A stretch of DNA of 64,000 nucleotides from Candidatus Moranbacteria bacterium GW2011_GWE2_35_2- (GCA_000990585.1 LBQD01000002.1:184016-248015); one strand, 5' to 3'; shown: positions 1 to 62,773, numbered from the stretch's first letter. Notes: a model not told the origin generated them from the letters alone. A program made the numbers and translations.

Positions 1-2904
1 AGCGTGATGAAAGATGTGGTGCCGCGATATTGGACGATGCGCGGAAAATATGTCGAGCGAAAATGGGGCTGGGATTGCCATGGTCTTCCAATTGAAAATA
101 TCGTGGAGAAAGAACTTGGTTCAAAAAAGAAAAAAGACATCGAGGAAATGGGCGTGGAGAAATTCAACGAGCTGTGTCGAAGCAAAGTTTTGGAATATGT
201 CGATATTTGGAAAAAAGTGATTTCCCGGCTCGGACGCTGGGCGGATATGGAAAATGCCTACAAAACGATGGATTTGCCGTATATGGAATCGGTTTGGAAC
301 GTTTTCAAACAGCTCTATGACAAGGGTTTGATTTATGAAGGCTACCGCTCAATGCATATTTGCACGCGCTGTGAAACGACTTTATCGCAACAGGAGGTTT
401 CCGAAGGGTATAAGGATATTAAGGATTTGTCGGCGATCGCGAAATTCGAATTAGTGAAACCCTCACCCCTAACCCCTCTCCCGGAGGGAGAGGGGGATAA
501 GGTTTTCGTTTTAGCTTGGACGACGACACCTTGGACATTGATTGGGAATGTGGCGCTGGCAGTAGGAAAGGATATTGATTATGTGGAAATTGGAATTAAG
601 AATCAAGAATCAGGAATTAGAGAAAACTATATTTTAGCCAAAGACAGAATTGCGGATGTGGCGAGAGATAAAGAGTATGAAATTATAAAAGAATTCAAGG
701 GTAGCGAATTAGTCGGTAAAGAATACAAACCGCTATTTGATTATTATCAAAACAAAGGTTTGCAAAACGAAGAGAATGGCTGGAAAATTTATGCCGGAGA
801 TTTTGTGACGACTGATGAGGGAACTGGCGTGGTGCATATCGCGCCGGCATTTGGAGAGGATGATTTGAAATTGGGACAAAAAGAAAAATTGCCGTTTGTG
901 CAACACGTTGGGTTGGATGGCGTGATTAAAAAAGAAGTTGGAGATCCTGAAGCACAGCAATCTGGCTATAGGGCAAGTTTTGCGGGACTTTCAGTCAAGC
1001 CGATGACCGGGGAAAAAGACAGCCATCAAAAAACCGATATCGAAATCATCAAATATTTGGCGCACAAGGGTTTATTGTTTTTTAAGGAAAAATATGAACA
1101 CAGTTATCCGCATTGCTGGAGGTGTGACACGCCGCTAATTAATTACGCGACAAGCTCTTGGTTTGTGGCGGTGGAAAAAGTGAAAGACGAAGCGTTGGAA
1201 TTGGCAAAAGAAATAAATTGGTCGCCATCCCATATGAAAGAAGGACGGTTTGGAAAATGGCTGGAAGGCGCGCGCGATTGGTCGATTTCCCGGCAGAGGT
1301 TTTGGGCGAGTGTGATGCCGATTTGGGTTTGCGATCAATGCGGAGAAGTTAGGGTGTTTGGGGGCGTTGGGGAGTTGGAAGAAATTTCCGGAGAGAAAAT
1401 CACTGACATCCACAAGCATATCGTGGATAAAATCATTTTCAAATGTGAAAAGTGCGCTTCGACAGGCTCAGCGCAAGTAGGGACAATGAAACGGGTGCCG
1501 GATGTTTTGGATACTTGGTTTGACAGTGGCTCGATGCCGTATGCTCAGATGCATTATCCATTTGAAAATGTGGAAAAATTCGAAAAAAGTTTTCCGGCGG
1601 ATTTCATTGCCGAAGGGCAGGATCAGACCCGGGCGTGGTTTTATTATCTTCATATTCTAGGCACGGCGCTCAAAAACAAGCCGGCTTTCAAGAATGTGAT
1701 TGTCAATGGAACTGTTTTAGCGGAAGATGGAAAGAAAATGTCAAAAAGGTTAAGTAATTATCCCGATCCTATGGAGATGTTTGAAAAATACGGCGCGGAC
1801 GCGGTGCGATTCTATTTGATGAGCAGCCCCGTCGTGGCGGCGGAAAATTTGAATTTCAAAGAGGCGGATGTGGCGGACGTGGTTCGTGGGATGATGCGGA
1901 TGCTTTGGAATTCATATTCATTTTTTGTGTTGTATGCAAACATTGACGGCTTTGCGCCGCAAGATACAAGATACAAAATACAAGATACAAGCAGTCTTTT
2001 GGATAAGTGGATTATTTCGGAATTGCATACGCTGATTCGGGAATTCAATTTGCATATGGAAAATTATGAGCTTAACCGGGCGTGCCGTTTGGTGCCTAAA
2101 TTCGTGGACAATCTTTCCAATTGGTATGTGCGCCGATCAAGAAAAAGATTCTGGAAATCGGAAAATGACAATGATAAAAATGAGGCATACGCGACTTTGC
2201 ACTATGTTTTGGTGGAACTTTCCAAAGTAATGGCATCGTTTACACCGTTTATTTCGGAAGAGATTTATAGAAATTTGAAGAGCCCTTACCCCAACCCTCT
2301 CCCAGAGGGAGAGGGGGATTTAGTGTCGGTGCATTTGGCTGATTTTCCGATGGCGGATGAGAAGTTGATTGATGAAAAGTTGAATGAGCAAATGCAAAAA
2401 ACTCGCGAAATTATTACGGAAGCGTTGCAACTTCGCGCCAAAGCGGGAATCAAGGTGAGGCAACCTTTGGGTCAATTTTCAATTTTCAATTTTCAATTTT
2501 CAAACAATGAAAAAGAATTTTTAAATATAATAAAAGAGGAAGTTAATGTGAAAAATGTTGCGATTAGCGGAGAAGAAGAAACGGAAGGGAAATGGGCGGT
2601 TGGCGATGCCGGAGGAGTCAAAGTGTCTTTGAATACGGAAATAACGGATGAGTTGAGGATGGAGGGGCAGGCGCGGGAGGTTGTTCGCTTTATTCAGGAA
2701 ATGCGCAAAGAAGCGGGATATGAAGTTGACAATCGCATCCAAGTGTGCTATGATGGACAGTCGGATGTTTTTGAAAAATTCGGTTCTTTGATAACTAAAG
2801 AAGTGTTGGCAGACAAACTGTCTGCCGAAAAATTGGAAAAAACAGACCTGCAAAAAGAATTCAATCTGGATGGCGAAAAAATCCGGATTGGGATTTGCAG
2901 ATAA
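1..2904 (+). CDS. ileS: isoleucyl-tRNA synthetase, 5' truncated at window edge
   Basis: WDCHGLPIE, WSISRQRFW and KMSKRL (KMSKS-type) motifs; long C-terminal anticodon-binding/Zn region; frame open to base 1. Confidence 0.85.
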   Translation, partial: SVMKDVVPRYWTMRGKYVERKWGWDCHGLPIENIVEKELGSKKKKDIEEMGVEKFNELCRSKVLEYVDIWKKVISRLGRWADMENAYKTMDLPYMESVWNVFKQLYDKGLIYEGYRSMHICTRCETTLSQQEVSEGYKDIKDLSAIAKFELVKPSPLTPLPEGEGDKVFVLAWTTTPWTLIGNVALAVGKDIDYVEIGIKNQESGIRENYILAKDRIADVARDKEYEIIKEFKGSELVGKEYKPLFDYYQNKGLQNEENGWKIYAGDFVTTDEGTGVVHIAPAFGEDDLKLGQKEKLPFVQHVGLDGVIKKEVGDPEAQQSGYRASFAGLSVKPMTGEKDSHQKTDIEIIKYLAHKGLLFFKEKYEHSYPHCWRCDTPLINYATSSWFVAVEKVKDEALELAKEINWSPSHMKEGRFGKWLEGARDWSISRQRFWASVMPIWVCDQCGEVRVFGGVGELEEISGEKITDIHKHIVDKIIFKCEKCASTGSAQVGTMKRVPDVLDTWFDSGSMPYAQMHYPFENVEKFEKSFPADFIAEGQDQTRAWFYYLHILGTALKNKPAFKNVIVNGTVLAEDGKKMSKRLSNYPDPMEMFEKYGADAVRFYLMSSPVVAAENLNFKEADVADVVRGMMRMLWNSYSFFVLYANIDGFAPQDTRYKIQDTSSLLDKWIISELHTLIREFNLHMENYELNRACRLVPKFVDNLSNWYVRRSRKRFWKSENDNDKNEAYATLHYVLVELSKVMASFTPFISEEIYRNLKSPYPNPLPEGEGDLVSVHLADFPMADEKLIDEKLNEQMQKTREIITEALQLRAKAGIKVRQPLGQFSIFNFQFSNNEKEFLNIIKEEVNVKNVAISGEEETEGKWAVGDAGGVKVSLNTEITDELRMEGQAREVVRFIQEMRKEAGYEVDNRIQVCYDGQSDVFEKFGSLITKEVLADKLSAEKLEKTDLQKEFNLDGEKIRIGICR
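458..498 (+). repeat. GC-rich palindromic 38-bp element, copy 1 (in frame inside ileS)
   Basis: AACCCTCACCCCTAACCCCTCTCCCGGAGGGAGAGGGGGAT; stem CCCTCTCCC/GGGAGAGGG; encodes PSPLTPLPEGEGD. Confidence 0.8.
1960..1992 (+). repeat. heptanucleotide tandem array (CAAGATA)x4-5 inside ileS
   Basis: caagatacaagatacaaaatacaagatacaagc, in frame (QDTRYKIQDTS). Confidence 0.8.
2281..2319 (+). repeat. GC-rich palindromic element, copy 2 (in frame inside ileS)
   Basis: AGCCCTTACCCCAACCCTCTCCCAGAGGGAGAGGGGGAT; encodes SPYPNPLPEGEGD. Confidence 0.8.
2472..2503 (+). repeat. heptanucleotide tandem array (TCAATTT)x4 inside ileS
   Basis: tcaattttcaattttcaattttcaattttcaa, in frame (FSIFNFQFSN). Confidence 0.8.
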
Positions 2905-2937
2905 AATATAAAAACCGTAAATACGAGAGGTGCGTTT

Positions 2938-3084
2938 ATGGACATTGCAATCAAATTTTTTTTGGATGTATGTGAAGTTCCGCCGATTGTTCTATATGTG
3001 TTTTTTGGCGGAGGCTTTTTAATCATTTCGTTTTTCTTGCTCGCAACGGCGGGCGGGGAAAAAAATAAGGAGGGAAAGAAATGA
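2938..3084 (+). CDS. small hydrophobic peptide (48 aa), hypothetical
   Basis: ATG at 2938 preceded by gagagg; TGA stop overlaps ATG of next ORF (ATGA coupling); single TM segment. Confidence 0.3.
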   Translation: MDIAIKFFLDVCEVPPIVLYVFFGGGFLIISFFLLATAGGEKNKEGKK

Positions 3085-3335
3085 TAGTGGAATGGTTTTT
3101 TACCCTGCCCATGGATTTTAAAATCCTTGCGTGGGTAGGTTCTTTTTTGGCAACAGCTTTTTGCTGTATGTTCTGGGGAGCGTTTTTTCTCCCCCAAAAA
3201 AAATGTTTAAGATGTGATAACTTGGATGATCCTCACGAGATGTTTCGTGAAGCGGATGGGAGTCTTCTCTGCCGGAGTTGTAAGGCAGAAAAGATTGCCG
3301 CTTCGATCGTTTCAGGGTGCGAGCATTGTCATTAA
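3081..3335 (+). CDS. small membrane protein with C-terminal CxxC...CxxC zinc-ribbon
   Basis: 84 aa ORF, N-terminal TM helix, CLRC...CRSC...CEHC cysteine pairs; translationally coupled to upstream peptide. Confidence 0.4.
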   Translation: MIVEWFFTLPMDFKILAWVGSFLATAFCCMFWGAFFLPQKKCLRCDNLDDPHEMFREADGSLLCRSCKAEKIAASIVSGCEHCH

Positions 3336-3427
3336 CTTTGACAAGTGAGCTTGCCCCGAGGCTTGACTCTACGTAATGTGGAGTTGAGCTTTTTTTATTT
3401 TCTTGGAAATTTTAATATTTTTCTAAG

Positions 3428-3465
3428 AACCCTCACCCCAACCCTCTCCCAGAGGGAGAGGGGGA
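3428..3465 (+). repeat. GC-rich palindromic element, copy 3 (intergenic, upstream of recO)
   Basis: GAACCCTCACCCCAACCCTCTCCCAGAGGGAGAGGGGGAA. Confidence 0.8.
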
Positions 3466-3517: not shown

Positions 3518-4231
3518 ATGGAATACAAATATACGGGAATAATTTTGGGAAAATATGATGTCGGGGAGACCGACCGGATTTATGTTATTTACACCTTGGA
3601 GCAAGGAAAAATTCGCGCGCTTGCCAAAGGGGTGCGCAAGATGCATGCTAAACTGTCAGGATCACTGGAGAGTTTCAATTTGGTTGATATTTTGATTGCG
3701 CGCAACAGGGGGATGGGAAAGATAAAATCAGCGATTGTGGAGAGAAACTTTTCCGTTATTAAAAACAATTTTGAACTGTTGGAAAAGGTTTTTCAAGTTA
3801 TTGGAATTTTCGGTCGTTTAATGGAAGATGAACAAAAAGACGAAGAAGCGTTTTTTTTGCTTGCGCAATATTTGAAAATGATGAATGAAAAAAACGGAGA
3901 TGATTTTTTGCGTTTTAGGATAATAACGCAGGGATTTTTGCACCAACTTTTTTCTTTATTGGGATATCAATTAGAAATTTCCGGTTGTGCGGTTTGTCGG
4001 GAAAAAATAAAAGCCGGCGGTAATTTTTTTTCAATGAGTTGCGGCGGAGTTGTTTGCCATAAGTGTGGCAATGATGTGGTTGAGAAAATGCGCGTTACGG
4101 ACAATACAATCAAGGCGATGCGTATTTTTTCTTCGAATAATTTGAAGTCCTTATTAAAGTTAAAAATAAAAAAAGAGGAAATAACAGAGTTGGAAAGAGT
4201 ATCCGATTTGTTTTATCGATGGATTGTATAA
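3518..4231 (+). CDS. recO: DNA repair protein RecO
   Basis: N-terminal OB-fold region (GIILGKYDVGETDRIYVIYT), C-terminal CAVC...CHKC zinc motif typical of RecO. Confidence 0.8.
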   Translation: MEYKYTGIILGKYDVGETDRIYVIYTLEQGKIRALAKGVRKMHAKLSGSLESFNLVDILIARNRGMGKIKSAIVERNFSVIKNNFELLEKVFQVIGIFGRLMEDEQKDEEAFFLLAQYLKMMNEKNGDDFLRFRIITQGFLHQLFSLLGYQLEISGCAVCREKIKAGGNFFSMSCGGVVCHKCGNDVVEKMRVTDNTIKAMRIFSSNNLKSLLKLKIKKEEITELERVSDLFYRWIV

Positions 4232-7747: not shown

Positions 7748-9025
7748 ATGAAAAAAATAATTCCACAAAAATTGAAAAATTATTATCATCTACTTTACGC
7801 CGTGGTGGCTAATTTTTGGTACGGATTTCCGTCAAAAAAAATAAAGGTAATTGGCGTAACGGGAACTAATGGAAAAACAACAACCGTGCAAATGATAACC
7901 AAGATTTTGGAAGAAGCTGGATTTGATGTGGCAATGGCTTCAACGATCAATTTCAAATTAAACGGTAAAGAAAAAGTTAATAAAACAAAATTCACAACCC
8001 TCTCGGCATTTGCGGTACAAAAATTTATTATGGATGCGGTTTTGGGTGAACATGATTTTGTGGTCTTGGAAACTTCATCGCATTCGCTAGATCAATACAG
8101 AGTGTGGGGAGTGGAATATGACACAGCAGTGATTACCAATGTGACGCGTGAGCATTTGGATTATCACAAGACAATGGAACAGTATCGAAAAGCCAAAAAA
8201 ACATTATTTAAAAAAGCGGAAAATATTGTGGTTAATTTGGATATGGAGAAACCGGAATATTATTTGAGTGCGGATGTCGAGAAAAAATATGGATATAGTA
8301 TTGAGAATCAAGAATCAAGAATCAAGAATCAGGATTTTTATAAAATGATAAAAGCAGAGAATATAAAACTAGATATCAATAAATCTGAATTCATAATTCA
8401 TAATTCTCAATTCTTATTAAATTTGCCGGGTAAGTTCAATATTGAAAATGCACTGGCGGCAACTTGCGTCGGAATGATTTATGATATTAAAAATGATGTT
8501 ATCGCGCGAGCTTTGGAAAAAATCAATGGAATTCCAGGAAGAATGGAAAGTGTTTCAAATGATAGAGGTTTAAATATTATAATTGACTACGCCGTGACTC
8601 CGGATTCATTGGAAAAATTGTATAGACTAATCAGAGAGTTTCGAAATACTGAAGACGGAAAAATCATTGCGGTATTTGGTTCTTGCGGAGAGCGTGATCG
8701 CGGCAAGCGTCCGATAATGGGAGAAATTGTTTCGCGTACTGCCGACTATGTCATTGTGACTAATGAAGATCCGTATGGAGAAGATCCGCAAAGAATTATT
8801 GATGAGGTGGCAAGCGGGGTGAAAAACAAAAAAGAGAATGAAAACTTTTGGAAAATAACGGATCGCCGCAGGGCAATCAAAAAAGCATTGCAAATTGCAA
8901 GGCCGGGGGATTTTGTGATTGTGACCGGCAAGGGGGCGGAAGAAACAATGGCAGTCGGCGCCACCGAAAGAATTTCTTGGAGCGATAAGAAAATTATCCG
9001 AGAAATATTGCAAGAATCAATGTAA
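7748..9025 (+). CDS. Mur ligase family protein, MurE-like, lacking the usual N-terminal UDP-binding domain
   Basis: P-loop VIGVTGTNGKTTT only ~35 aa from N-terminus; C-terminal GSCGERDRGKRP...VTNEDPYGEDP resembles MurE DNPR region. Confidence 0.65.
   Translation: MKKIIPQKLKNYYHLLYAVVANFWYGFPSKKIKVIGVTGTNGKTTTVQMITKILEEAGFDVAMASTINFKLNGKEKVNKTKFTTLSAFAVQKFIMDAVLGEHDFVVLETSSHSLDQYRVWGVEYDTAVITNVTREHLDYHKTMEQYRKAKKTLFKKAENIVVNLDMEKPEYYLSADVEKKYGYSIENQESRIKNQDFYKMIKAENIKLDINKSEFIIHNSQFLLNLPGKFNIENALAATCVGMIYDIKNDVIARALEKINGIPGRMESVSNDRGLNIIIDYAVTPDSLEKLYRLIREFRNTEDGKIIAVFGSCGERDRGKRPIMGEIVSRTADYVIVTNEDPYGEDPQRIIDEVASGVKNKKENENFWKITDRRRAIKKALQIARPGDFVIVTGKGAEETMAVGATERISWSDKKIIREILQESM
8303..8331 (+). 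repeat. heptanucleotide tandem array (AGAATCA)x4 inside Mur ligase gene
   Basis: gagaatcaagaatcaagaatcaagaatcagg, in frame (ENQESRIKNQD). Confidence 0.8.
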
Positions 9026-12721: not shown

Positions 12722-13153
12722 ATGCAATTTAAGATACCTCGGGATAATGACAAATATCAGTGGACGGCGCATTCGGTGATGAAGATGCGGCAGTATGGGC
12801 TGAGCGCCCAGCGGATTTTGCGCGTGGTGCGCGCTCCGCACAGAAAGGAAGAAGGAATTGTGAAAAAAACCGTTGCCGTGATGCAACCGGTTTCATTTAA
12901 GACTGATAAGGAAGGTAAGCGTACTTGGGGAAGTGAGATTTGGGTGATGTATCAACTAAAAAGAATTAAGAATAAAGAATTAGGAATTAAGGATAATAAT
13001 TCAAAGAAAAATATTCTCAATTCTCAATTCTCAATTCTCAATTCTGCGAGTCAGAAAATTCGCATAATAAGCGCTTGGAAATATCCCGGGGTAAGTCCGA
13101 AAAACAACCCTGTTCCGGAAGATATTTTGCGGGAATTGGAGGATATTGTGTAA
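12722..13153 (+). CDS. hypothetical protein
   Basis: ATG at 12722 (track start is TTG); contains two in-frame heptamer tandem arrays. Confidence 0.3.
   Translation: MQFKIPRDNDKYQWTAHSVMKMRQYGLSAQRILRVVRAPHRKEEGIVKKTVAVMQPVSFKTDKEGKRTWGSEIWVMYQLKRIKNKELGIKDNNSKKNILNSQFSILNSASQKIRIISAWKYPGVSPKNNPVPEDILRELEDIV
12961..13044 (+). repeat. two adjacent heptamer arrays (AAGAATT)n and (ATTCTCA)x4 inside hypothetical gene
   Basis: aagaattaagaataaagaattaggaattaagg ... attctcaattctcaattctcaattctcaattct. Confidence 0.75.
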
Positions 13154-13226: not shown

Positions 13227-13646
13227 ATGGAAGAATTAAAAAATGCCAATAATGATGAAAAGCAAACAGGAGTAGAAGATAAAAAAGAGGATTTTCAATC
13301 AAATGAAGACATTAAAAAATCTTCAAACGAGAATAAAGGAGCAGAAACGGGCAATGATTCTCAGGAAAATAAAGCGATCGCTTTATTGAGTTATATCTCA
13401 ATTCTTTTTCTGATTCCTCTTTTATTAAAAAAAAGCAGTGCTTTTTGTCAATTTCATGCGAAGCAAGGTATGGTTTTGTTTATTGTTGAAGTTGTCGGAT
13501 GGTTTCTAACTCCATTTTTCGGATTGGGAGTTTTGGTTAATCTTTTTGCGCTGATTCTGATGATTATGGGAATTATTAATGTGCTTAATAATGAAACAAA
13601 GAAGCTTCCTTTGATTGGCGATTTTGCGGATAAGTTTAACTTGTAG
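13227..13646 (+). CDS. DUF4870-like small membrane protein
   Basis: acidic N-terminus then LLSYISILFLIPLLL...HAKQG TM core typical of DUF4870. Confidence 0.4.
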   Translation: MEELKNANNDEKQTGVEDKKEDFQSNEDIKKSSNENKGAETGNDSQENKAIALLSYISILFLIPLLLKKSSAFCQFHAKQGMVLFIVEVVGWFLTPFFGLGVLVNLFALILMIMGIINVLNNETKKLPLIGDFADKFNL

Positions 13647-50179: not shown

Positions 50180-50255
50180 AAGTTTAATTATCAAAATTAT
50201 TAATGATCAATTATTAATTAATGTTCAATGAAATAATTTTCAAAAATATTAAAAA

Positions 50256-50304
50256 ATTGAAAATTATAAATTGATTGTAAATTGAAAATTGTGAATTGAA
50301 ATTT
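50256..50304 (+). repeat. intergenic heptamer array (AAATTGA)n upstream of mreB, reverse complement of the TCAATTT array in ileS
   Basis: aaaattgaaaattataaattgattgtaaattgaaaattgtgaattgaaa. Confidence 0.7.
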
Positions 50305-51321: not shown

Positions 51322-52463
51322 AAATAGGTATTGATGGTTCGCGGGCGTTTTTGAAAAATCGCACGGGAATCGAAGAATATTCTTATCAAGTTATCAAACA
51401 CCTGAGGGACAAATTAGAAAGTCATCAGGTGATTTTGTATTTGAGGAAGAATCAAGAATTGAGAATCAAGAATCAGGGCTTTGAATTGCCGGAAAATTGG
51501 AAAGTGAAAGTGATAAGTTTTCCAAGGTTTTGGACTCAGATCGGATTGTCCTTGGAAATGCTTTTGCGTCCGATAGATGTGCTTTTTGTGCCGGCGCACA
51601 CAGTGCCGATCATTCATCCCAGAAAAACAATCGTGACAATTCATGGATTGGAATACGAATTTTGTCCCAAAGCTTATTCATTTTGGGAAAAAATTTATAT
51701 GCGCTGTTCGATAAAATTTTCTTGCAAGTGGGCGAGTAGGATTATTTCTGTTTCGGAAAATACCAGGAAAGATTTGATGAGATTGTATAATGCGCCGGAA
51801 AATAAGATTGAAGTTATTTATGAGGGATACAATTTTAATTTCCAATTTCCAATTTCCAATTTTCAATCAATTTCCAATGATAAAATTTTAAATTCAAAAA
51901 ATAAGTATCTACTGTTTATTGGCAGGCTGGAAAAACGGAAGAATACTCTGGGAATCATTAAGGCATTTGAAATTTTAAAAGAAAAATATCAAATTCCGCA
52001 CAAACTGATTTTGGCGGGAAAAGGCGGGTATGGAGAAGAGGAAATTAAAGATAAAATTGAAAAATCAAAATATAAAGAGGATATTATTTTACCGGGTTTT
52101 ATTGCCGAAGAAGAAAAATGGGAATTATTGAAAAATGCAGATGTTTTTTTGTTTCCGACTTTTTATGAGGGTTTTGGAATTCCGATTTTAGAAGCGCAAA
52201 GCGTCGGCACTCCTGTGGTGGCTGGAAACAATTCCTCAATTCCGGAAGTGGTGTCAGTAAAACAGGGAAGTATTGAATTGTCAGATCAAAAGTCAGCTTT
52301 GCTTGTGGATGTTAATAGCGCGGAAGAAATCGCCGAAGCAACTTATGAGCTTATTAACGATAATGATTTGAGAGAAAAAATAATTAAAATGGGATTGGAA
52401 AACGTCAAAAGATTTTCTTGGGAAAAATGCGCATCTTCTATTACTAAATTATTGAATAAATAG
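51318..52463 (+). CDS. glycosyltransferase family 4 (GT-B)
   Basis: C-terminal EGFGIPILEAQSVGTPVV EX7E region. Confidence 0.8.
   Translation: MKIGIDGSRAFLKNRTGIEEYSYQVIKHLRDKLESHQVILYLRKNQELRIKNQGFELPENWKVKVISFPRFWTQIGLSLEMLLRPIDVLFVPAHTVPIIHPRKTIVTIHGLEYEFCPKAYSFWEKIYMRCSIKFSCKWASRIISVSENTRKDLMRLYNAPENKIEVIYEGYNFNFQFPISNFQSISNDKILNSKNKYLLFIGRLEKRKNTLGIIKAFEILKEKYQIPHKLILAGKGGYGEEEIKDKIEKSKYKEDIILPGFIAEEEKWELLKNADVFLFPTFYEGFGIPILEAQSVGTPVVAGNNSSIPEVVSVKQGSIELSDQKSALLVDVNSAEEIAEATYELINDNDLREKIIKMGLENVKRFSWEKCASSITKLLNK
51447..51474 (+). repeat. heptanucleotide tandem array (AAGAATC)x4 inside glycosyltransferase gene
   Basis: aagaatcaagaattgagaatcaagaatcagg, in frame (KNQELRIKNQG). Confidence 0.8.
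51837..51880 (+). repeat. heptanucleotide tandem array (AATTTCC)x3-4 inside glycosyltransferase gene
   Basis: aatttccaatttccaatttccaattttcaatcaatttccaat, in frame (NFQFPISNFQSISN). Confidence 0.8.
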
Positions 52464-52536: not shown

Positions 52537-53295
52537 TTATTTTACATTAATATATTTGCAAGAAAAATCCTTATCTCCTCCGGTAAGTCCAGCGGTAATG
52601 TGTCCTGGCGTAAAATTTCTTCCCTTGGAAGAGTGATATAAATAATATTTTTCTAATTGCTGTGCTGTTAGGTTTTTTTGTTTCAATATTTGAATAGCTT
52701 TTAATTCACCCGTTGCTCCTGGACCAAATTTTTCATCCAAACAATTATAAATAGCAACCAGTTGATTTTCAAAATTTTCATTGGCTGGCGAGGGGCTAGC
52801 TATAATTTTATCTACGATACCTGAATAAACTTTCAAAACATCTTGGGTGTCACTTTCGGTTTTTATATCTTTCTTGACTTTTGTTTGGCATAAACTCATA
52901 TCCTTATCATTGCAAATAGAGCCTCCGGTCACAAATCCCGCACCATGAAAATTAGAACAATTAAAACCACATTCATCTTCTTTACAACTCGGCTCTGCTC
53001 TTAATTCGAGGCAAAGTTTTTGATTTTCCTCTTTAATTTGTTTGGAATCTATAGAATTTGCCCAACCAAAAATTATCCACCCCACTAAACATCCAAGCAA
53101 AAATATATTTTTTTTGAAAGCAAGTAACCCAAAAACTATAGCTAACAAATAGCCGAAAATAGCGAATTGAAAATAATGATTATAAAACAGTGCTGGAATG
53201 GTAGAGGCTGCACCAAGTAAAAAAATAAAACCAAGCAATGCGACTGCTACTAAGTTTATAATTTTTAAAAATCCGATGATTTTGTCTTTATTCAT
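52537..53295 (-). CDS. membrane protein with Cys-rich extracytoplasmic domain, hypothetical
   Basis: 4 N-terminal TM helices then Cys-rich ~150 aa domain. Confidence 0.35.
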   Translation of the reverse strand: MNKDKIIGFLKIINLVAVALLGFIFLLGAASTIPALFYNHYFQFAIFGYLLAIVFGLLAFKKNIFLLGCLVGWIIFGWANSIDSKQIKEENQKLCLELRAEPSCKEDECGFNCSNFHGAGFVTGGSICNDKDMSLCQTKVKKDIKTESDTQDVLKVYSGIVDKIIASPSPANENFENQLVAIYNCLDEKFGPGATGELKAIQILKQKNLTAQQLEKYYLYHSSKGRNFTPGHITAGLTGGDKDFSCKYINVK

Positions 53296-53365
53296 GTATT
53301 TAAAATAAAAAAATAAAATTTGCCTCGATTAAATGCCCGATAGGGTCGAAAAGAATTTTTTAATA

Positions 53366-53540
53366 TTTCGCCTAACGTATCGGAGTATGCGAAGTTCGCT
53401 TTTTGGGTTTATTGATTATTATTTGAATTATCTGGTTACTATTTTAGATGATTTTTGCTTAAATTACCACCAAACAGAGAAAAGCGAATTTGGGAAAAAT
53501 TCGAGCCGAGCCTTTTTCCGCATACTCGGTGTTAGGCGAG
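53366..53540 (+). repeat. attC-like structured repeat R1
   Basis: left CGCCTAACGTATCGGAGTATGCGAAGTTCGC, right GCGAATTTGGG...CCGCATACTCGGTGTTAGGCGAG; inner stems pair within the copy. Confidence 0.7.
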
Positions 53541-53618
53541 GGTGAGCGGAACGGAGTGGAGCGAAAGCGCAGCGTCCCAGTAGCGTTTTCTTTTAAATTA
53601 TTTTTTGCGGTCGCGGGC

Positions 53619-53647
53619 TTGACAGATTATTCCTTATCTGCTATACT
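53619..53647 (+). promoter_or_regulatory. consensus-like sigma-70 promoter P1 inside cassette W
   Basis: TTGACA -17- TGcTATACT; near-identical module to P2 at 54648. Confidence 0.55.
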
Positions 53648-53742
53648 AAACGGTCAATAGTTGAGAAATCGTTTTTTAACTCAAAAGAGTGGTTTCTTGC
53701 TATTGCGAGGACTTACTCTATTTGGAGGAGGGAGGAGAAAAA

Positions 53743-53892
53743 ATGAAGAAAACAATAAAGATTTTGGCCGCAATAAATGCTGTATTAACTGTAGTAAATG
53801 CCGCAGTTAATATAAAGCCACTTACTGTGGCAGCTGCGGTGTTTTTCATTTTAATCACAATCATCATTTTTTCGATACCATCGAAGAAGTGA
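53743..53892 (+). CDS. small hydrophobic peptide (49 aa)
   Basis: GGAGGAGGGAGGAG RBS, ATG 53743, single TM peptide MKKTIKILAAINAVLTVVNAAV...; strong terminator follows. Confidence 0.35.
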   Translation: MKKTIKILAAINAVLTVVNAAVNIKPLTVAAAVFFILITIIIFSIPSKK

Positions 53893-53911
53893 TGATCCAC
53901 AGTTCCAATTC

Positions 53912-53945
53912 AAGGCGTTAGCTGTACAGCTAACGCCTTTTTTTC
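53912..53945 (+). terminator. rho-independent terminator
   Basis: AGGCGTTAGCTG-ta-CAGCTAACGCCT 12-bp perfect stem followed by TTTTTTT. Confidence 0.7.
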
Positions 53946-53972
53946 ATGAGCAAAAAATAATTTGAAAGAAAA

Positions 53973-54060
53973 TGTCGCCTAACGTTTACGCATCATCTGA
54001 AGTGCGAAGCATTTGAGTGAAGCGTAGCGAAACCGGATATGGGCTGTTGGGCGATGTAAG
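53973..54060 (+). repeat. attC-like repeat R2 (short, degenerate)
   Basis: left TGTCGCCTAACGTTTACGCATCATCTGAAG, right CTGTTGGGCGATGTAAGG. Confidence 0.55.
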
Positions 54061-54070
54061 GTTTGGCAAT

Positions 54071-54334
54071 TTATTTTTGTTTATTAAAATTTTTAACTGG
54101 AAAAAATAGTATCAAGCAGAAAGCTACCAAGCTATCAATATACGGAATTAACGGACAAATATTTTTTGAATAATAAATTTTTTTTTCACAATCTAAATCG
54201 CCGACTACACATGCGAGTTTCAATGTGCAATTACTTCCATATAAAAATTTATCGAAAATAACAAAAACCAGGACGGCGATAATTAAAGCGATGATAAATT
54301 TAATTTTAGTTGGTTTAAAAATTTTAATAAACAT
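54071..54334 (-). CDS. small membrane protein, hypothetical (cassette gene)
   Basis: 87 aa, two TM helices, Cys-containing loop; sits between R2 and R3. Confidence 0.3.
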   Translation of the reverse strand: MFIKIFKPTKIKFIIALIIAVLVFVIFDKFLYGSNCTLKLACVVGDLDCEKKIYYSKNICPLIPYIDSLVAFCLILFFPVKNFNKQK

Positions 54335-54373
54335 ATTTTTTTTTACTTATTAAAAATAAATTGCCAGACCTTA

Positions 54374-54594
54374 TTTCGCCTAACGTTTAAGAATATCTGA
54401 AGTCCTGCACTTTGGTTTTTATACACAAAACCTTGATATTCCTACTTTATTTGTTAATCTCATTATACTCTAATTTACAGCAAAACGGAAAAGTGCAGGA
54501 TTTGGGAGAGAAAAATTTGCCCTCCTTTTAGTTTTAACTGTGGCAAATTTTTTGAACCAGATATTCTTTGTTATCGGATGTAGCAAAAAACAAA
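54374..54594 (+). repeat. attC-like structured repeat R3
   Basis: TTTCGCCTAACGTTTAAGAATATCTGAAGTCCTGCAC...GTGCAGGATTTGGGAGAGAAAAATTTGCCCTCC...GGCAAATTTTTTGAACCAGATATTCTTTGTTATCGGATGTAGC. Confidence 0.75.
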
Positions 54595-54647
54595 CATTCC
54601 TTATTGTATTTATTTTTTTTCAAGCCCTTTTAAAATTTTTTGTGGTC

Positions 54648-54676
54648 TTGACAGGCTGGCTTTTTTCTGCTATACT
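54648..54676 (+). promoter_or_regulatory. consensus-like sigma-70 promoter P2 inside cassette X
   Basis: TTGACA -17- TGcTATACT, then AAAAGGAGG RBS before ATG 54736. Confidence 0.55.
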
Positions 54677-54735
54677 AACTTGATACTAATTTTGGTGTCT
54701 GTACATTACAAAACTCGAGAAAAAGGAGGTTTACA

Positions 54736-55296
54736 ATGGAACTCAAGAGTATATTGTCGGTAATTTCTGGCGTGTTGTTCGTTGCGGGATTCGTTCCCTA
54801 CATTATCGCAATACTGCGTGGTGAAACGAAGCCTGCAAAGGCCTCGTGGATAATCTGGGCAAGCCTTGACTATATTGTCTTGGCTGGCATGATTGCTGAA
54901 AAAACAGTCAACGGACAAATCCTTGGGGCTGTAATCGGAGCAACAATCGTCATCGGTCTGGCCATGAAATACGGAGCTTCGGGTTGGACAAGAACGGATA
55001 AATTTTGTCTCATCGGTGCAATGCTTGGCATTTCATTATGGATGATTTTTAAAAATCCAACCTTCGGCATCATGACAAGCTGCATTGTCGCATTTATCGG
55101 TTCTTTTCCCACGTTTATATCTGCGTGGAAAGACCCCAGTAAAGAAAACAGGCTTGCGTGGACTATTTTCTGGATTTCCTGCGTTTGCGCAATGATAGCC
55201 ATTCCGCGCATGACCTTTGCTGATGCAGCACAGCCCACAACCTTTTTTCTAATTGAAAGCGTCATGATGTATATTTTGTACTTTCGCGCTCGCTAA
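54736..55296 (+). CDS. polytopic membrane protein, hypothetical, GC-rich (foreign-looking)
   Basis: 186 aa, ~6 TM; strong promoter and RBS; GC ~48%. Confidence 0.5.
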   Translation: MELKSILSVISGVLFVAGFVPYIIAILRGETKPAKASWIIWASLDYIVLAGMIAEKTVNGQILGAVIGATIVIGLAMKYGASGWTRTDKFCLIGAMLGISLWMIFKNPTFGIMTSCIVAFIGSFPTFISAWKDPSKENRLAWTIFWISCVCAMIAIPRMTFADAAQPTTFFLIESVMMYILYFRAR

Positions 55297-55411
55297 ACTC
55301 GCAAGCGACATTATTGTAAGGTCATCAGTTGGATACTGGTGGCCTTTTTCTTTTTCTAAAATTTTAAAAGGGCTTGAAAAAAAATATTAATAAAAGGTTT
55401 GTTTTTTGCTA

Positions 55412-55440
55412 TTTCCGATAACGTAAGTGATATCTGAAGT
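55412..55440 (+). repeat. attC-like repeat R4, left arm (interrupted by cassette Y)
   Basis: TTTCCGATAACGTAAGTGATATCTGAAGT pairs with right arm at 55877. Confidence 0.55.
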
Positions 55441-55495
55441 TTTTATTTTCTTTCCTTATTATTTTTAAAAAAGGGAAAATAAAAATTTGGGTGGA

Positions 55496-55874
55496 GTGAA
55501 AGAAAAATATTATTTAATATCGATTAGAACAGCATCAACTTCTTCATCAGAAACAAACGCTCTGGTAACTTGCTCACATTGAATTTCATCAAAAATTTTC
55601 ACCACCACATATGTTCCAATGGTTTTTCCTTCGCCTAAAGTATATTTGGTTATGACACATCTGCCATAAGCATTCCAGTTTTCATCTCGCAGATCCATTG
55701 GAACTTTGATTTGATAAAGCCTGTGCCCGTTTTTACTAAAATTATACTTTTTGCCAATCTCGAGCGGATTAGGAATATCCTTTTTGTCCATTCTGAGACA
55801 GGCTTGCAATTCAAATGGGTTGCCCATAAATTTTTTGATATTAACGGAGATATTAAATAATATTTTTCTTTCAC
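55496..55874 (+). mobile_element. TIR-bounded mini-cassette Y carrying a 105-aa gene, inserted inside repeat R4
   Basis: 26-bp TIRs GTGAAAGAAAAATATTATTTAATATC / GAGATATTAAATAATATTTTTCTTTCAC; left TIR overlaps stop codon of the gene. Confidence 0.55.
55510..55827 (-). CDS. hypothetical protein (cassette gene)
   Basis: 105 aa soluble protein, no motif recognised. Confidence 0.4.
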   Translation of the reverse strand: MGNPFELQACLRMDKKDIPNPLEIGKKYNFSKNGHRLYQIKVPMDLRDENWNAYGRCVITKYTLGEGKTIGTYVVVKIFDEIQCEQVTRAFVSDEEVDAVLIDIK

Positions 55875-55876
55875 GT

Positions 55877-55907
55877 AACCAGATATTACTTGTTATCGGA
55901 TGTGGCG
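55877..55907 (+). repeat. attC-like repeat R4, right arm
   Basis: AACCAGATATTACTTGTTATCGGATGTGGCG. Confidence 0.55.
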
Positions 55908-55922
55908 AATACTTGGAGCTAT

Positions 55923-56042
55923 TTCCGATAACGTTTCAGTATATCTGATGTTTGCCAAAATTCCTTTAAAAATCAATAAGTTTTTGGCAAATATGGGTCG
56001 AGCGAGGGCACGAGCGAGCCAGATATACTGTGTTGTGCGAGG
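55923..56042 (+). repeat. attC-like repeat R4b (short complete copy)
   Basis: TTTCCGATAACGTTTCAGTATATCTGATG...TTTGCCAAAA/TTTTGGCAAA...AGCCAGATATACTGTGTTGTGCGAGG. Confidence 0.65.
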
Positions 56043-56175
56043 GTTATTTTCTGGAGTGATAACGGAAGAAAATCAAGTGCAACGACCCCGAAGCGTATTT
56101 TTCAATATTTTTTCATTCCTTATTATTTTGTTGAAGAATTTTATCATTATTTGGAATTTTTATTTTTTCGTTTTT

Positions 56176-56212
56176 CTTTTTCCAAGAGGGGTTAGGGGTG
56201 AATTGGAAAAAG
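56176..56212. repeat. hairpin with G-rich loop GAGGGGTTAGGGGTGAA (half copy of the ileS GC-rich element), at 3' end of IIG gene
   Basis: 10-bp stem CTTTTTCCAA/TTGGAAAAAG around loop. Confidence 0.5.
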
Positions 56213-56221
56213 AAAAACACC

Positions 56222-58642
56222 TTATTTTAAATATTTCTTTAACTCATCAAAACCATAACTATTTTCTACAATATTTTTTATATACTCCAAATCTAACTCC
56301 TTGTCGTTTTTAAAAGGCATTGGAATATTCATTTTTTTAAGTTTTGTTAAATTTAATTTTCTGTAATAATTATATCTCCATTGATGATTTTTTATCATTA
56401 CTGAAATATAAAATAATAAATATGGATTATATTCATTTTTTAATGTTAGAACTGCATTATCTCCGCTAGTTATAAAATCATCAAATTGAAAAAATGTTTC
56501 TCCAACACTTCCGTTTAATGCCACAGTTAGACATTTGCCTTTAAAATTTGGATCTTCATCGTAATAACCGGATACTCCATTATTTAGCGATGAAGTAGTA
56601 ACATATGGAATATTACCTATTTCTAAAGAATTTTGAGGCAAGGCTGTTTTTTTGTTTATAATACATAAACCATTTTCTTGCTCTTCTTTTATATAAATTA
56701 CTGGTATAAATTTTATTTTAGGCTGTTTCCCTATATGTTTACTTCTCCATTTTTTAGTTTTTATTAAATATGTTAATGATTCTTTTATAGCATTGTCTAA
56801 TTGTTCTTCGACTTCTTTAATATCAGGTATTTTATTATCTATATAAACCTCGGGGGTAAGTTCTATGTTTACATCATTATTATCAAGCTTACAAATTTTC
56901 TTAAATTCTGGAGCGTCTTCAAATTTTAGATTTTGATTAACTAAAAATGCTTTCAATTCTTCTTTTATTTCTTTTATTTGATTTCTTTCTCTTTCTTCAT
57001 CAAAAATTCTTTTTCCTTTCTTTTTTCTATATCCGTCCGTAACACCTCTTGCAAAATATACATTTTGACTATTAAAATTATGAGGAACACCCTTTTTTAT
57101 AAATACTCCTATTGTTCCAACACTAACAGGATAAAATAGATCTTCTGGCAAAGTAACAACCGATAATAAAGTATTATTTTCTAGTAAATCTTTTCTCCAA
57201 GATTTTCCACCTCCACCTTCAACCATTACAGAGATTGGAACAATGGCAAAAAGAATACCACCGTCTTGCATTTGAGATAATGCATGATCTATAAAATGTC
57301 TTTCTTTTTCATCTCCTTTTTTAAGAGCAAAAGGAGGGTTCATTAATACTTTAGTGATAACTGGATTTTTAGTTAATTCATTACCTATTCTTTTTACAAA
57401 TTCACCTGTTTGATTTCCTTTTTTATTAGTTAATTCTATATTTTTTTGAAAACAATTTCCCTCACTCATATTATTTCTTCCATCTCCCCTAAAAATCATA
57501 TTTACAAGTGCAAGTGCTACGACTTCATCGTCCTGTTCAATTCCAAAAAGATTATAATTTTTAAATTTTTCTATTTGTTTATCGCTTGAATTTTTTTTGA
57601 TATGATCAAAAGAAGAAACTAAAAAACCACCTGTACCACAAGTCGGATCAAGAACATAATCATTGTGATTTACATCTAAAACTTCAACTGCAAATTCTGT
57701 TATATGTCTAGGAGTTAAAACGATACCTATCTCTTTTGCACCATTTCCATATTTCAAAAATTTTTCATAAAATTCTCCTAAAATATCTTTACCAGAAGCC
57801 ATTGCATTCTTAATATCTAAAGCCTCTAATTCTTTAATTGTTTCCTTGATTGCGTCCCTATATTTTATGTGATTCTCTCTGCTTGGTGGTAATTCTAATT
57901 TTAGAAAATTAAAAAAACTTTCTTTTTCTACTTCTCTTAGTTTTTTATTGATTAATGAATTAACACTTTCAACTAATGTTGTTGTATCATTTTCTTTTAG
58001 ATTGATAAAAGAATTATCTGCCAAAGAAAGTACAAGTCCTGCAATGAATCTAGCTCTTTTATTTTTATTTATCCCTGCATTATGTAAAATTTCATTTATT
58101 TCTAATGCTGAATCTATATATTTTTCTTCTGGCAAATCTGGAAACTCCGACCATTCTGGCTTATCGTGTTCTAAAATATATTGAGCTTGTTTTTTTGAAA
58201 GTAAGATATTTTTTATCTTTCCTTTTTCCAAAAGCACATTTTCCCATTTCCCATTTTTTAAATATTGATTTTTGACTATATAACCATCTGTATCATTTCC
58301 AGCTACTCCAGAAATTAAAACACATTTAATTTTTTTACTTTTGTTAATCTTTTTCGCATATTGATTTTTTGCCTCATCAAGAGCTTGTTCTATCATATCT
58401 CTATCTCTCTTGCTTTCAATTGCCCAAAATTCTTCACTATTAAGTTTTACCACAGCTTCTGGCATATCTCTATCCAGAAGATTTTTTAGTTCTTTATGGT
58501 ACAAAACTTCATTTTGCTTATAAACTTCACCATCAGAAACCCTAGCAGGATTTTTTACAATCCAACCTAATTTATCAAGCTCTTCCTTGATATAAGTATA
58601 AGCATCAACCTCACTATTTTTTGGTTTAGATGAATGAGTCAT
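56222..58642 (-). CDS. Type IIG-like restriction-modification fusion protein (N6-adenine MTase + TRD, putative N-terminal nuclease)
   Basis: MTase motif I DPTCGTGGFL, motif IV NPPF, HsdM-like GEFYEKFL...TPRHI; C-terminal HsdS-type TRD; N-terminal PE...IESK possible PD-ExK; very AT-rich codon usage. Confidence 0.55.
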   Translation of the reverse strand: MTHSSKPKNSEVDAYTYIKEELDKLGWIVKNPARVSDGEVYKQNEVLYHKELKNLLDRDMPEAVVKLNSEEFWAIESKRDRDMIEQALDEAKNQYAKKINKSKKIKCVLISGVAGNDTDGYIVKNQYLKNGKWENVLLEKGKIKNILLSKKQAQYILEHDKPEWSEFPDLPEEKYIDSALEINEILHNAGINKNKRARFIAGLVLSLADNSFINLKENDTTTLVESVNSLINKKLREVEKESFFNFLKLELPPSRENHIKYRDAIKETIKELEALDIKNAMASGKDILGEFYEKFLKYGNGAKEIGIVLTPRHITEFAVEVLDVNHNDYVLDPTCGTGGFLVSSFDHIKKNSSDKQIEKFKNYNLFGIEQDDEVVALALVNMIFRGDGRNNMSEGNCFQKNIELTNKKGNQTGEFVKRIGNELTKNPVITKVLMNPPFALKKGDEKERHFIDHALSQMQDGGILFAIVPISVMVEGGGGKSWRKDLLENNTLLSVVTLPEDLFYPVSVGTIGVFIKKGVPHNFNSQNVYFARGVTDGYRKKKGKRIFDEERERNQIKEIKEELKAFLVNQNLKFEDAPEFKKICKLDNNDVNIELTPEVYIDNKIPDIKEVEEQLDNAIKESLTYLIKTKKWRSKHIGKQPKIKFIPVIYIKEEQENGLCIINKKTALPQNSLEIGNIPYVTTSSLNNGVSGYYDEDPNFKGKCLTVALNGSVGETFFQFDDFITSGDNAVLTLKNEYNPYLLFYISVMIKNHQWRYNYYRKLNLTKLKKMNIPMPFKNDKELDLEYIKNIVENSYGFDELKKYLK

Positions 58643-59064: not shown

Positions 59065-59128
59065 TTTTTTTTGTCTTCTATTTTATTGGTACAAATTTTG
59101 TTTATTCTAAAAGAAAATTTGATTTTTG

Positions 59129-59177
59129 TTTTGGATTTTGGGCAGAGGGGTCAGGGGTGAATGCCCAAAATCCAAAA
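59129..59177. repeat. hairpin with G-rich loop GAGGGGTCAGGGGTGAA, at 3' end of 59185..59664
   Basis: 16-bp perfect stem TTTTGGATTTTGGGCA/TGCCCAAAATCCAAAA. Confidence 0.55.
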
Positions 59178-59184
59178 CTCCTTT

Positions 59185-59664
59185 TTATTTTTCCTCTAGA
59201 TCTTTACCAGATATCCATGCTTCATACAATATTTCATCACGAGTTTTATAATGGCTTTCTTCAATTTTAACATCTTCCATTCTTTTCATATAAGCTGCGT
59301 ACAAAGGAGACTCTTTTTTCATATATTCAATGTATGCATCATCAATTCCGTTGTAAGTTGGGTCTGCCATCATTTTTTGTACACGATATTCATCCTTTCC
59401 CTTTTCTAGCTTTTTCCACTCTTGGGCTAATTCTTCATCACTACGATTATCACCAGCCAACCTTGCTCTGTTGATGTAAATATCCGTTCTTTCTTTCTCT
59501 AACTTCTCCATCTCTACAATATCCTGCTCCTCAGTTTGCTCATAATCTCTTGTGCCTGGATTAAAATCTCTTTCCATAGCTTCTAACCCTTCTATGTGGG
59601 CAGTTTCAGCATCTTTACTGCCTGGCTCTGGAGTAAAACTCCCAAAATTTTCTTTGTTTCCCAT
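59185..59664 (-). CDS. acidic hypothetical protein (cassette gene)
   Basis: 159 aa, E/D/K-rich, no motif recognised. Confidence 0.35.
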   Translation of the reverse strand: MGNKENFGSFTPEPGSKDAETAHIEGLEAMERDFNPGTRDYEQTEEQDIVEMEKLEKERTDIYINRARLAGDNRSDEELAQEWKKLEKGKDEYRVQKMMADPTYNGIDDAYIEYMKKESPLYAAYMKRMEDVKIEESHYKTRDEILYEAWISGKDLEEK

Positions 59665-61915: not shown

Positions 61916-62773
61916 ATGAATGAATATTATCATAAAAGAAAAAATGCGACAATGACAGAAATGGACTCATTAAACAGATTGGAACGAGAATTGAAAATTC
62001 GTGGATTTAGTTTAAAAACCGTCAAGTCTTATTTGATGTATAATAGGCTATTTTTGGAATTTATAAAGAAAAGTCCTAAAGCGATTACAAATGATGACAT
62101 TCGTCAATATTTATTATCTCTGAAAAATAAAAATTGCGCTAATTCCACTTTAAACGTGGCGCTTAATGCTTTGAAGTTTTATTATCGAGGAATACTTAAA
62201 AGAAAATTCTTTTTTGATATAAAAAGCGCTAAAAAAACTAACTATTTGCCGACGGTTCTTAGTAAGGAAGAAGTTAAGAGAATGTTAGAGATGACCACAA
62301 ATCCAAAACATAATTTTTTCATAGCCTTGATGTATTCGTCCGGTTTGCGTGTTAGCGAGGCAGTCAAAATAAGGATGTGTGATTTTGATTTAGATAGAAA
62401 AATAATCACAGTGCGGCAAGGAAAGGGTGCAAAAGATCGCTGCACGCTTCTGTCGGAAAAACTTATACCGACATTAAAAAAGCAACTAACACTTAAAAAA
62501 TCAAATGATTATTTATTTACTGGGGCAGGTGGAAACGGACATCTAACTGTTGAAAGTGCCGAAAAAATAATTAGAAAGGCAGTTGAGTCAGCCAATATCG
62601 TTAAAAAAGTTTCTTGTCACAGTTTGCGACATTCTTTTGCCACTCATCTTCTGGAATCTGGTACGAGTATTCGGTATATTCAAGAACTTTTAGGGCATGC
62701 TAGACTGGAAACAACACAAATTTACACTAAAGTTGCCAATAATAATTTACAAAATATCCAAAGTCCGTTATGA
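61916..62773 (+). CDS. tyrosine site-specific recombinase, XerC/XerD-like
   Basis: GLRVSEAVKIRMCD (Arg I), VRQGKGAKDR, HSLRHSFATHL (His/Arg II), LGHARLETTQIYTKV (catalytic Tyr); no IntI-specific insertion. Confidence 0.8.
   Translation: MNEYYHKRKNATMTEMDSLNRLERELKIRGFSLKTVKSYLMYNRLFLEFIKKSPKAITNDDIRQYLLSLKNKNCANSTLNVALNALKFYYRGILKRKFFFDIKSAKKTNYLPTVLSKEEVKRMLEMTTNPKHNFFIALMYSSGLRVSEAVKIRMCDFDLDRKIITVRQGKGAKDRCTLLSEKLIPTLKKQLTLKKSNDYLFTGAGGNGHLTVESAEKIIRKAVESANIVKKVSCHSLRHSFATHLLESGTSIRYIQELLGHARLETTQIYTKVANNNLQNIQSPL

Follow-up and report, generated by a model that had tools for sequence, protein, structure and literature searches.

How does a short, GC-rich palindromic repeat come to lie in frame, twice, within an essential gene of a low-GC bacterium? 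The question is raised by a 64-kb stretch of DNA from Candidatus Moranbacteria bacterium GW2011_GWE2_35_2- (GCA_000990585.1, LBQD01000002.1:184016-248015), a member of the candidate phyla radiation (CPR). This stretch, which we call the window, has a G+C content of 36%, not the 33% that the initial annotation had given for the genome. Its start cuts off the 5' end of ileS, the gene for isoleucyl-tRNA synthetase (IleRS), and its first 3.5 kb carry three copies of an element of 36–41 bp. Judged by its sequence, the element is a member of the BoxC/PIT/TMECO family of repeats: the kind of element is known; new are the host that it occurs in and its coding context. The features concerned are the following open reading frames (ORFs) and repeats:

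4..2904, + strand: ileS, host gene of copies 1 and 2, an ORF that is a mosaic of segments resembling the related Moranbacteria loci L001 and L002; NLKSPYPNPLPEGEGDLVSVH is the stretch of the predicted IleRS translation that spans the insert.
458..498, + strand (C-rich strand on +): BoxC/TMECO-type copy 1, in frame in ileS, encoding KPSPLTPLPEGEGDKV.
2281..2319, + strand: BoxC/TMECO-type copy 2, a clean in-frame insertion of 36 nt (12 codons), CCTTACCCCAACCCTCTCCCAGAGGGAGAGGGGGAT, at 2284-2319 of ileS.
3428..3465, + strand: BoxC/TMECO-type copy 3, intergenic, between a small ORF (3081..3335) and recO (3518..4231).

The pattern CCCTCTCCC-N3-GGGAGAGGG matches the window three times without a mismatch, while 0.00 matches are expected from 100 shuffles of the window, which confirms the three copies as initially placed. 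Each match is preceded by a left arm of the form CCCT(C/T)ACCCC(T)AACCC(C), in which copy 1 has an additional T and C. The stem is perfect in every window copy; the 9-bp inverted repeat described at the outset is correct for copies 2 and 3, but copy 1 has a stem of 10 bp. The ORF reads through copies 1 and 2, translated as KPSPLTPLPEGEGDK and KSPYPNPLPEGEGDL, so that both coding copies indeed keep the ileS frame and add a PLPEGEGD-type peptide rich in Pro, Gly and Glu (P-H/Y-P-N-P-L-P-E-G-E-G-D). The unit itself is open in five of the six reading frames. Copy 3, about 500 bp downstream of ileS, is oriented as both coding copies. The 5' flanks of the copies are AAA, AG and AA, the 3' flanks GGAT or GGAA. 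All three copies thus fall within 3.5 kb of the 64-kb window; the related Moranbacteria loci, which span 6–23 kb each, have 0–3 copies per locus.

A BoxC unit has three blocks of 9–10 nt: a C-rich one, the inverted, G-rich complement to it and one more that is G-rich. BoxC is identical with PIT (potential intrastrand triplex) and with the TMECO 'triplex motif', for which the pattern CCCTCNCCC-N3-6-GGGNGAGGG-N3-GGGNGAGGG was published (Holder et al. 2015, PMC4666352). Copies 1 and 3 fit this pattern, in which one stem mismatch is allowed, exactly (0 expected). Copy 1 is a variant with 10-nt blocks and the second loop TTA; it fits when the second loop is taken as 5 nt, with the published G-strand pattern on the − strand at 460-494. 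Copy 2 departs from the pattern at one position (GGGTAAGGG).

The element is up to 94% identical (34/36 nt) to the E. coli copies. Of 5426 complete E. coli genomes, 5400 match the 36-nt query, with a median of 14 places per genome, and no annotated feature lies beneath any of the matches listed. We also scanned one genome per GTDB species with an exact 31-nt pattern taken from the window (28 specified bases). This core occurs in at least 120 loci from more than 10 phyla; among the matches listed are Myxococcota, Planctomycetota, Alpha-, Beta- and Gammaproteobacteria, Acidobacteriota, Verrucomicrobiota, Chloroflexota, Omnitrophota, Binatia, Desulfobacterota, a Vampirovibrio and others. Eight viral contigs in IMG/VR have the same exact core pattern. 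The identity with E. coli, the pattern match and the core's presence in many phyla therefore show that this kind of element was already known and that its range goes beyond the 262 proteobacterial genomes of the 2015 TMECO survey (Holder et al. 2015, PMC4666352). The family has been known since the 1990s; earlier work by Bergler, Bachellier and Hoyne/Maher is cited in PMC4666352 and PMC5100583. The initial description as a dispersed, REP-like, GC-rich palindromic repeat is thus supported, but the element is not the unusual one that it had been taken for.

The window copies share with those of E. coli the C9-N3-G9-N3-G9 architecture, a near-identical sequence that fits the published pattern, an apparently multi-copy, dispersed distribution, and presence/absence polymorphism between close relatives. 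They differ in their host, a low-GC CPR bacterium of the Moranbacteria, in the 10-nt blocks of copy 1, in the lack of inverted type A and type B pairs in the window, and in their location: two of the three window copies lie inside a gene and its predicted translation, whereas all 23 E. coli K-12 copies are intergenic. An intergenic location is a descriptive feature of the K-12 copies and does not enter the definition by sequence. In their coding location they recall the Rickettsia palindromic elements (RPEs), which are about 100–150 bp long and restricted to Rickettsia. There, too, a palindromic repeat lies in frame in housekeeping genes and its surface peptide is tolerated by the protein. However, the present unit is shorter (36–41 bp), has a BoxC sequence, occurs in many phyla and has a Moranbacteria host, and is not a member of the RPEs, which are reportedly the subject of Ogata et al. 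2000 (Science). In the literature that we searched, nothing relevant was found on in-frame palindromic insertions in CPR/Patescibacteria.

A second comparison is with REP elements (repetitive extragenic palindromes) and bacterial interspersed mosaic elements (BIMEs), which are mobilised by RAYT transposases (IS200/IS605-like Y1). For BoxC we know of no RAYT gene, and none was noted in the window, where no systematic search for one was made. The unit resembles REP/BIME in being short, GC-rich, palindromic and dispersed. It differs in lacking a GTAG/CGTC head at the stem, neither tetranucleotide adjoining the palindrome in the flanks of any of the three copies, while REPs lack the third repeat block. 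For REP/BIME elements, see Di Nocera et al. 2013 (PMC3733652).

We next turn to ileS. The best IleS matches were all from Candidatus Moranbacteria, with at most 84% amino acid identity. The comparison set comprised 120 homologues, and for nine homologues the syntenic locus (argS, GT4 glycosyltransferase, ileS, small ORF, recO) was obtained. The closest relative, L001 (84%), lacks all three copies. In the DNA alignment, the position of copy 2 (site 2) is a precise 36-nt gap in L001 and in a third locus, L003. At the position of copy 1 (site 1), where 48 nt stand in place of an ancestral 15 nt (V-DEPGT), the element is present in the window and in L002, degenerate in L003 and absent from L001. 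About 100 of the 120 homologues have short loops at both places, VDEPGT at site 1 and LTG-KE-SVHL at site 2. In an alignment to the solved IleRS 8c8v (HMMER), the two inserts coincide exactly with gaps of 11 and 13 residues. An AlphaFold model with a mean predicted local distance difference test score (pLDDT) of 69 has coil with pLDDT<50 at residues 157-163 (site 1) and 762-771 (site 2). The empty relatives, the gaps against 8c8v and the low pLDDT show both ileS copies to be lineage-specific insertions in permissive, disordered surface loops. The ortholog alignment thus bears out the initial suggestion of insertions rather than ancestral sequence. The same peptide in orthologs of unrelated taxa, named there as the sign of an ancestral sequence, was not found in the sense intended, but scattered Moranbacteria do share the site-2 peptide while their sister lineages are empty. 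Unrelated short insertions occur at the same two loops in other lineages, and the residues to either side of the insert are systematically unlike their counterparts in empty alleles. Neither a target-site duplication nor a conserved target sequence was seen between filled and empty sites in the DNA alignment of the window with L001–L003.

The intergenic copy 3 has an ortholog in L002 only and is absent from L001. At the orthologous place in L003 (~13530-13580) we observed a different GC-rich palindrome, ATTCCCGC...GCGGGAAT, which suggests that this spacer collects various palindromic repeats.

Further repeats and insertions were also noted. The window contains eight heptanucleotide tandem-repeat arrays of 4–7 copies each (1960-1991, 2472-2503, 8304-8331, 12961-12991, 13013-13045, 50253-50301, 51447-51475 and 51837-51878). 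At least two of them are in frame inside ileS, where (CAAGATA)n gives QDTRYKIQ and (CAATTTT)n gives QFSIFNFQF. At the first of these positions L001–L003 have a different heptamer, (AAAGCGA)n, and QDTRYKIQ is present as well in ArgS of locus L130. A histidine-phosphatase domain (PF00300) is inserted within some IleS of the Moranbacteria type (P0022, P0071, P0104, P0105, P0111 and P0120, 1133–1180 aa; L127 917-4441).

How the element passes between relatives can be read from the ileS gene itself. In a sliding-window comparison, the window ileS is 0.90–0.98 identical to L002 around site 1 (447-600) and site 2 (2261-2350), while adjacent segments (e.g. 2051-2200 and 2351-2700) are 0.9–1.0 identical to L001; downstream of site 2 identity to L002 is only 0.3–0.6. 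L001 and L002 come from the same metagenome. Against L001–L003 as a whole the gene is a fine-scale mosaic, in which segments of 100–600 bp are by turns about 100% identical to L001 and about 95% identical to L002. The pattern indicates frequent homologous recombination among co-occurring Moranbacteria. Element-bearing patches of 100–200 bp, as these identities show, move between related populations by homologous recombination, and this is the sole dispersal step that is directly shown. Presence or absence of the element is therefore an allele state.

Coding copies are not confined to ileS. In L130 a variant element lies in frame in argS (APSSGPMGHLLPEGEGE), and in L127 an element lies in tgt in another frame (PLTLTPSPSGRGW). 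Among the 125 elements in high-GC genomes, coding calls from long stop-free frames, which 38 of the 125 have, are unreliable; in-gene copies in other phyla were kept only if Pfam domains were present on both sides. Three in-frame cases passed:

L007:2253-5741: cobN (Acetobacteraceae), Pfam domains on both sides.
L075:776-3358: radical-SAM YgiQ-like gene (Sulfuricella), Pfam domains on both sides.
L124:3-2735: uvrA (Planctomycetia), Pfam domains on both sides.

These three copies use three different reading frames and both strands and orientations. Together with argS and tgt they show that in-frame tolerance is a general property of the BoxC unit and is tied neither to one host nor to one gene.

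The initial annotation had also reported two 'half copies' of the element in the loops of hairpins immediately 3' of cassette genes. The hairpins and their position were described correctly, but we find that they are not half elements. The relevant features, near the end of the window, are:

56176..56212, − strand: hairpin 1, with a 16-bp A/T-rich stem and a 17-nt loop, GAGGGGTTAGGGGTGAA on the + strand and UUCACCCCUAACCCCUC on the gene-sense − strand.
~55927-56039: attC-like site downstream of hairpin 1.
59129..59177, − strand: hairpin 2, with a 17-bp stem of other sequence and the same loop with T>C.
~58868-59060: attC-like site downstream of hairpin 2.
61916..62773, + strand: tyrosine recombinase of the integron-integrase/XerA type, 285 aa, at the end of the cassette array (~53–62 kb).

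The 16-mer GAGGGGTYAGGGGTGA occurs on the + strand at 56186-56201 and 59145-59160 (0 expected), both times within the 17-nt loop closed by the 16–17-bp stem (gene-sense z = -3.5 and -6.9). Both hairpins begin about 8–10 nt past the stop codon of a minus-strand gene: hairpin 1 about 10 nt after the TAA of a methylase/specificity gene (56222..58642), hairpin 2 directly after the stop codon of the ORF 59185..59664. A scan of metagenomes with the near-invariant 19-nt loop AGAGGGGTYAGGGGTGAAT returned at least 119 loci, nearly all with 28–45% G+C. Nearly all of them are built alike: between conserved left and right flanks, a stem with the base GTTTTG/CAAAAC and a variable upper part closes the loop. 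In an alignment of 98 distinct copies, 10 of 11 predicted pairs vary in a compensatory way (at one of them, for instance, 45 copies have GC, 43 UA, 8 AU and 1 CG). A covariance model recovers further copies with loops differing by one or two bases; in the window it detects the two known hairpins only, and it has no match in the ileS loci. In 84 of 121 cases, an ORF of at least 40 codons (median 234) on the C-rich strand ends 5–50 nt before the loop, mostly at 18–32 nt. Its stop codon is usually the TAA within a conserved AATAAGGAG, and the proteins encoded upstream bear no relation to one another. An attC-like imperfect palindrome follows 70–150 nt downstream of the hairpin (e.g. ...CTAAC-ACGGCATATCTGG...CAGATGATGCCGATAC-GTTAGGC). 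Such sites were judged by conserved-motif counts and direct reading; a generic attC detector (AAC...GTT arms, local alignment) was too insensitive and did not separate the downstream regions from controls.

The slight variation of the loop, the covarying stem and the position in cassettes identify the half copies as the near-invariant loop of a separate, structured, covarying hairpin family in the 3' module of integron-type cassettes. This module, consisting of stop codon, hairpin, spacer and attC-like site, is conserved. Several other identities were considered and rejected. In decayed BoxC copies one would not expect covarying stems around a loop with at most 1–2 changed bases in more than 100 distinct copies. 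An intrinsic terminator is not called by the scan: the loop is 17 nt (not 3–8), and neither strand has a U-tract 3' of the stem, whose 5' side is rich in U and whose 3' side is rich in A whichever strand is read. The hairpins are not attC sites either. Like attC, they lie in integron-like cassettes and keep their structure while the stem sequence varies. However, their stems (GTTTT../..AAAAC) are perfect, without bulges or extrahelical bases and without the R'' (RYYYAAC) and R' (GTTRRRY) boxes, their 17–19-nt loop is near-invariant, and they stand 70–150 nt before the attC-like site. The perfect stem, the near-invariant loop and the offset thus separate hairpin and attC. Among the 4227 covariance models of Rfam, the whole window yields two tRNAs only at the gathering threshold, and at E<=10 all matches in 55900-59400 are far below gathering scores.

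The cassettes form an integron-like array at ~53000-62800 with at least seven attC-like imperfect palindromes (GCCTAAC/GTTAGGC-type ends). They are 1–3 kb long and encode, among others, a DUF2584 protein, a HAD hydrolase and a type I methylase/specificity fusion. The array as a whole stands as an insertion between two GT4 glycosyltransferase genes. The recombinase scores above threshold for the NCBIfam 'site-specific tyrosine recombinase/integron integrase' and just below it for the TIGR02249 integron integrase. No paper on integrons in CPR/Patescibacteria was found in the literature searched. A 79-nt inverted repeat (73% complementary) lies at 56096-56174 and 58786-58864, a little inward from either end of the methylase cassette, where it separates the hairpin or promoter region from the attC-like sites. 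Upstream of the HAD hydrolase cassette, the stretch 60333-60380 (…AAAAACACCTTTTACCCCTCT…AAAAATCAAATTT…) may be a degenerate remnant of the hairpin module in opposite orientation.

What, then, accounts for BoxC in ileS? Probably the element is an ordinary member of its family, selfish or neutral DNA that is tolerated in permissive loops and reshuffled among relatives by recombination. It entered ileS at two disordered surface loops; its length is divisible by three, and it is read in a stop-free frame that yields a Pro/Gly/Glu-rich peptide, which IleRS presumably tolerates. At these positions the element would persist as harmless, its sequence being held near consensus; this upkeep could come from re-seeding by other copies, from gene conversion or from constraint on the hairpin. 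Among close relatives, element-bearing patches are exchanged by homologous recombination, as described above. In favour of DNA without a function of its own, neither promoter or terminator activity nor a non-B structure in vivo is reported for the E. coli copies (PMC4666352).

Several observations weigh against this account. Among the 121 IleS sequences, the peptide derived from BoxC is confined to two positions, always in identical orientation and frame, with 3 carriers at site 1, all from one clade, and 14 at site 2. In the neighbour-joining tree of these sequences, those with the insert at site 2 are scattered over at least seven separate places, their sister lineages being empty, and the DNA is near consensus in each carrier lineage. 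Outside ileS, BoxC is sparse: about 200 kb of Moranbacteria loci contain some three independent copies, and 119 other low-GC loci contain none. Every copy seen in Moranbacteria has its C-rich strand as sense. Finally, in 10 pairs among 5 lineages, the element has a nucleotide identity of 0.91 compared with 0.76 in the adjacent conserved sequence, and at third codon positions the difference is larger still (0.93 and 0.54). The scattered occupation together with the scarcity elsewhere marks site 2 as a hotspot, which could be an old allele that spread laterally, a repeatedly struck target or a selected state. Random insertion followed by a filter for permissive loops does not easily predict such recurrence, which suggests targeting, an old allele spread by recombination, or selection. 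The high identity of the element compared with its flank fits a foreign, conserved sequence, but at synonymous positions it can just as well be taken for the mark of a functional nucleic-acid structure. These two points, recurrence at site 2 and synonymous-site conservation, are those that the account of tolerated DNA handles least well.

The first of them is addressed by a targeted mobile unit, in which trans-acting, sequence- or structure-specific machinery would insert the element at the site-2 region with the core GAGGGGTTAGGGGTGA as its recognition sequence. This would explain why one codon position is occupied in so many scattered lineages by DNA near consensus, and it agrees with the exact 28-base core across more than 10 phyla. 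Moreover, BoxC copy 1 and the near-invariant loop of the cassette hairpins have 17 identical bases, and the same core in both would reflect the same factor. However, filled and empty sites show neither a target-site duplication nor a conserved target, and no transposase or HUH-type gene was identified beside any copy, although no systematic search was made. The copies in other genes and phyla use different frames and orientations, and the directly observed recombination of element patches can explain the patchiness among relatives. We therefore regard a targeted unit as unlikely, if as the strongest of the alternatives.

The conservation of third codon positions is instead what would be expected if a hairpin, triplex or G-quadruplex regulated ileS (through translation pausing, mRNA stability, or pausing of replication or transcription) and were under selection at the nucleotide level. 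The perfect stem in all window copies and the uniform orientation, with the C-rich strand as sense, are consistent with this. As initially reported, the complementary strand of all three copies matches a four-run G-quadruplex motif (four runs of at least 3 G, loops of 1–7 nt), and these three, all on the − strand, are the only such motifs in the window; the 'telomere-like' TTAGGGG units are merely loop 2 of the motif. For the same E. coli sequences ('HPG1-HPG2'), a switch between G-quadruplex, hairpin and duplex was published on evidence from circular dichroism (Kaplan et al. 2016, PMC5100583), whereas nuclear magnetic resonance (NMR) showed, for the G-rich strand on its own, an intrastrand triplex and not a G-quadruplex (Holder et al. 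2015, PMC4666352). The G-quadruplex suggested in the initial annotation is thus neither new nor settled: it has been published for the E. coli copies and is contradicted by the NMR triplex. In the presence of its complement the sequence is duplex DNA, and no protection or non-B structure was detected in vivo; BoxC was associated with local genomic instability (PMC4666352). Earlier work, as cited by Holder et al. 2015 (PMC4666352), saw no promoter or terminator activity, and the regulatory role that had been considered for the window copies is not supported. The folding energies of the coding copies are ordinary for their composition (z = -0.8 to -1.5). In addition, the closest relative and about 100 of the 120 homologues do without the element, and the same unit is present in unrelated genes and in intergenic DNA. 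A functional structure thus seems unlikely, slightly more so than targeted insertion.

A bolder proposal extends the idea of targeting to the cassettes. Here the core GAGGGGTTAGGGGTGA would be the recognition sequence of a conserved trans-acting factor or mobilisation mechanism, BoxC copies would be targeted insertions, and the cassette hairpin would function in cassette recombination or expression. If true, this would explain both why one ileS codon was struck in at least seven lineages and the near-identity of the element from E. coli to CPR; we consider it quite improbable and place it below the two preceding explanations.

It is also conceivable that selection acts on the peptide, PxPxPLPEGEGD serving as a flexible acidic linker of IleRS and the likeness to BoxC reflecting the source of the DNA only. 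The constant frame and position in all IleS cases and the systematically different residues beside the insert would fit. Selection on a peptide leaves the conservation of synonymous positions unexplained, though, and the loop is predicted to be disordered, sister lineages lack the insert, and the same sequence recurs in intergenic DNA 500 bp downstream of ileS. An adaptive peptide is thus very unlikely. An assembly or sequencing artefact, i.e. a chimeric join at a GC-rich repeat, comes to mind because such repeats break assemblies and several matches in other metagenome-assembled genomes are at contig ends, but it is effectively refuted by the same in-frame insertions in independent assemblies (JGI, NCBI, ENA and Logan samples) with intact ORFs and collinear flanks.

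The copies in ileS extend the range of BoxC/TMECO to CPR bacteria. A repeat whose E. coli K-12 copies have been called strictly intergenic can lie in the reading frame of essential genes (ileS, argS, tgt, cobN and uvrA), much as the RPEs do in Rickettsia. The recurrently occupied ileS codon, together with a metagenome in which the filled allele (L002) occurs beside the empty one (L001), provides a system for asking how BoxC moves. The hairpins that came to light as a by-product may matter even more. They constitute a large, structured and unannotated family by which the 3' ends of integron-type cassettes are marked in genomes of low G+C, presumably those of CPR bacteria, and which in the window adjoins an integron-integrase-like recombinase.

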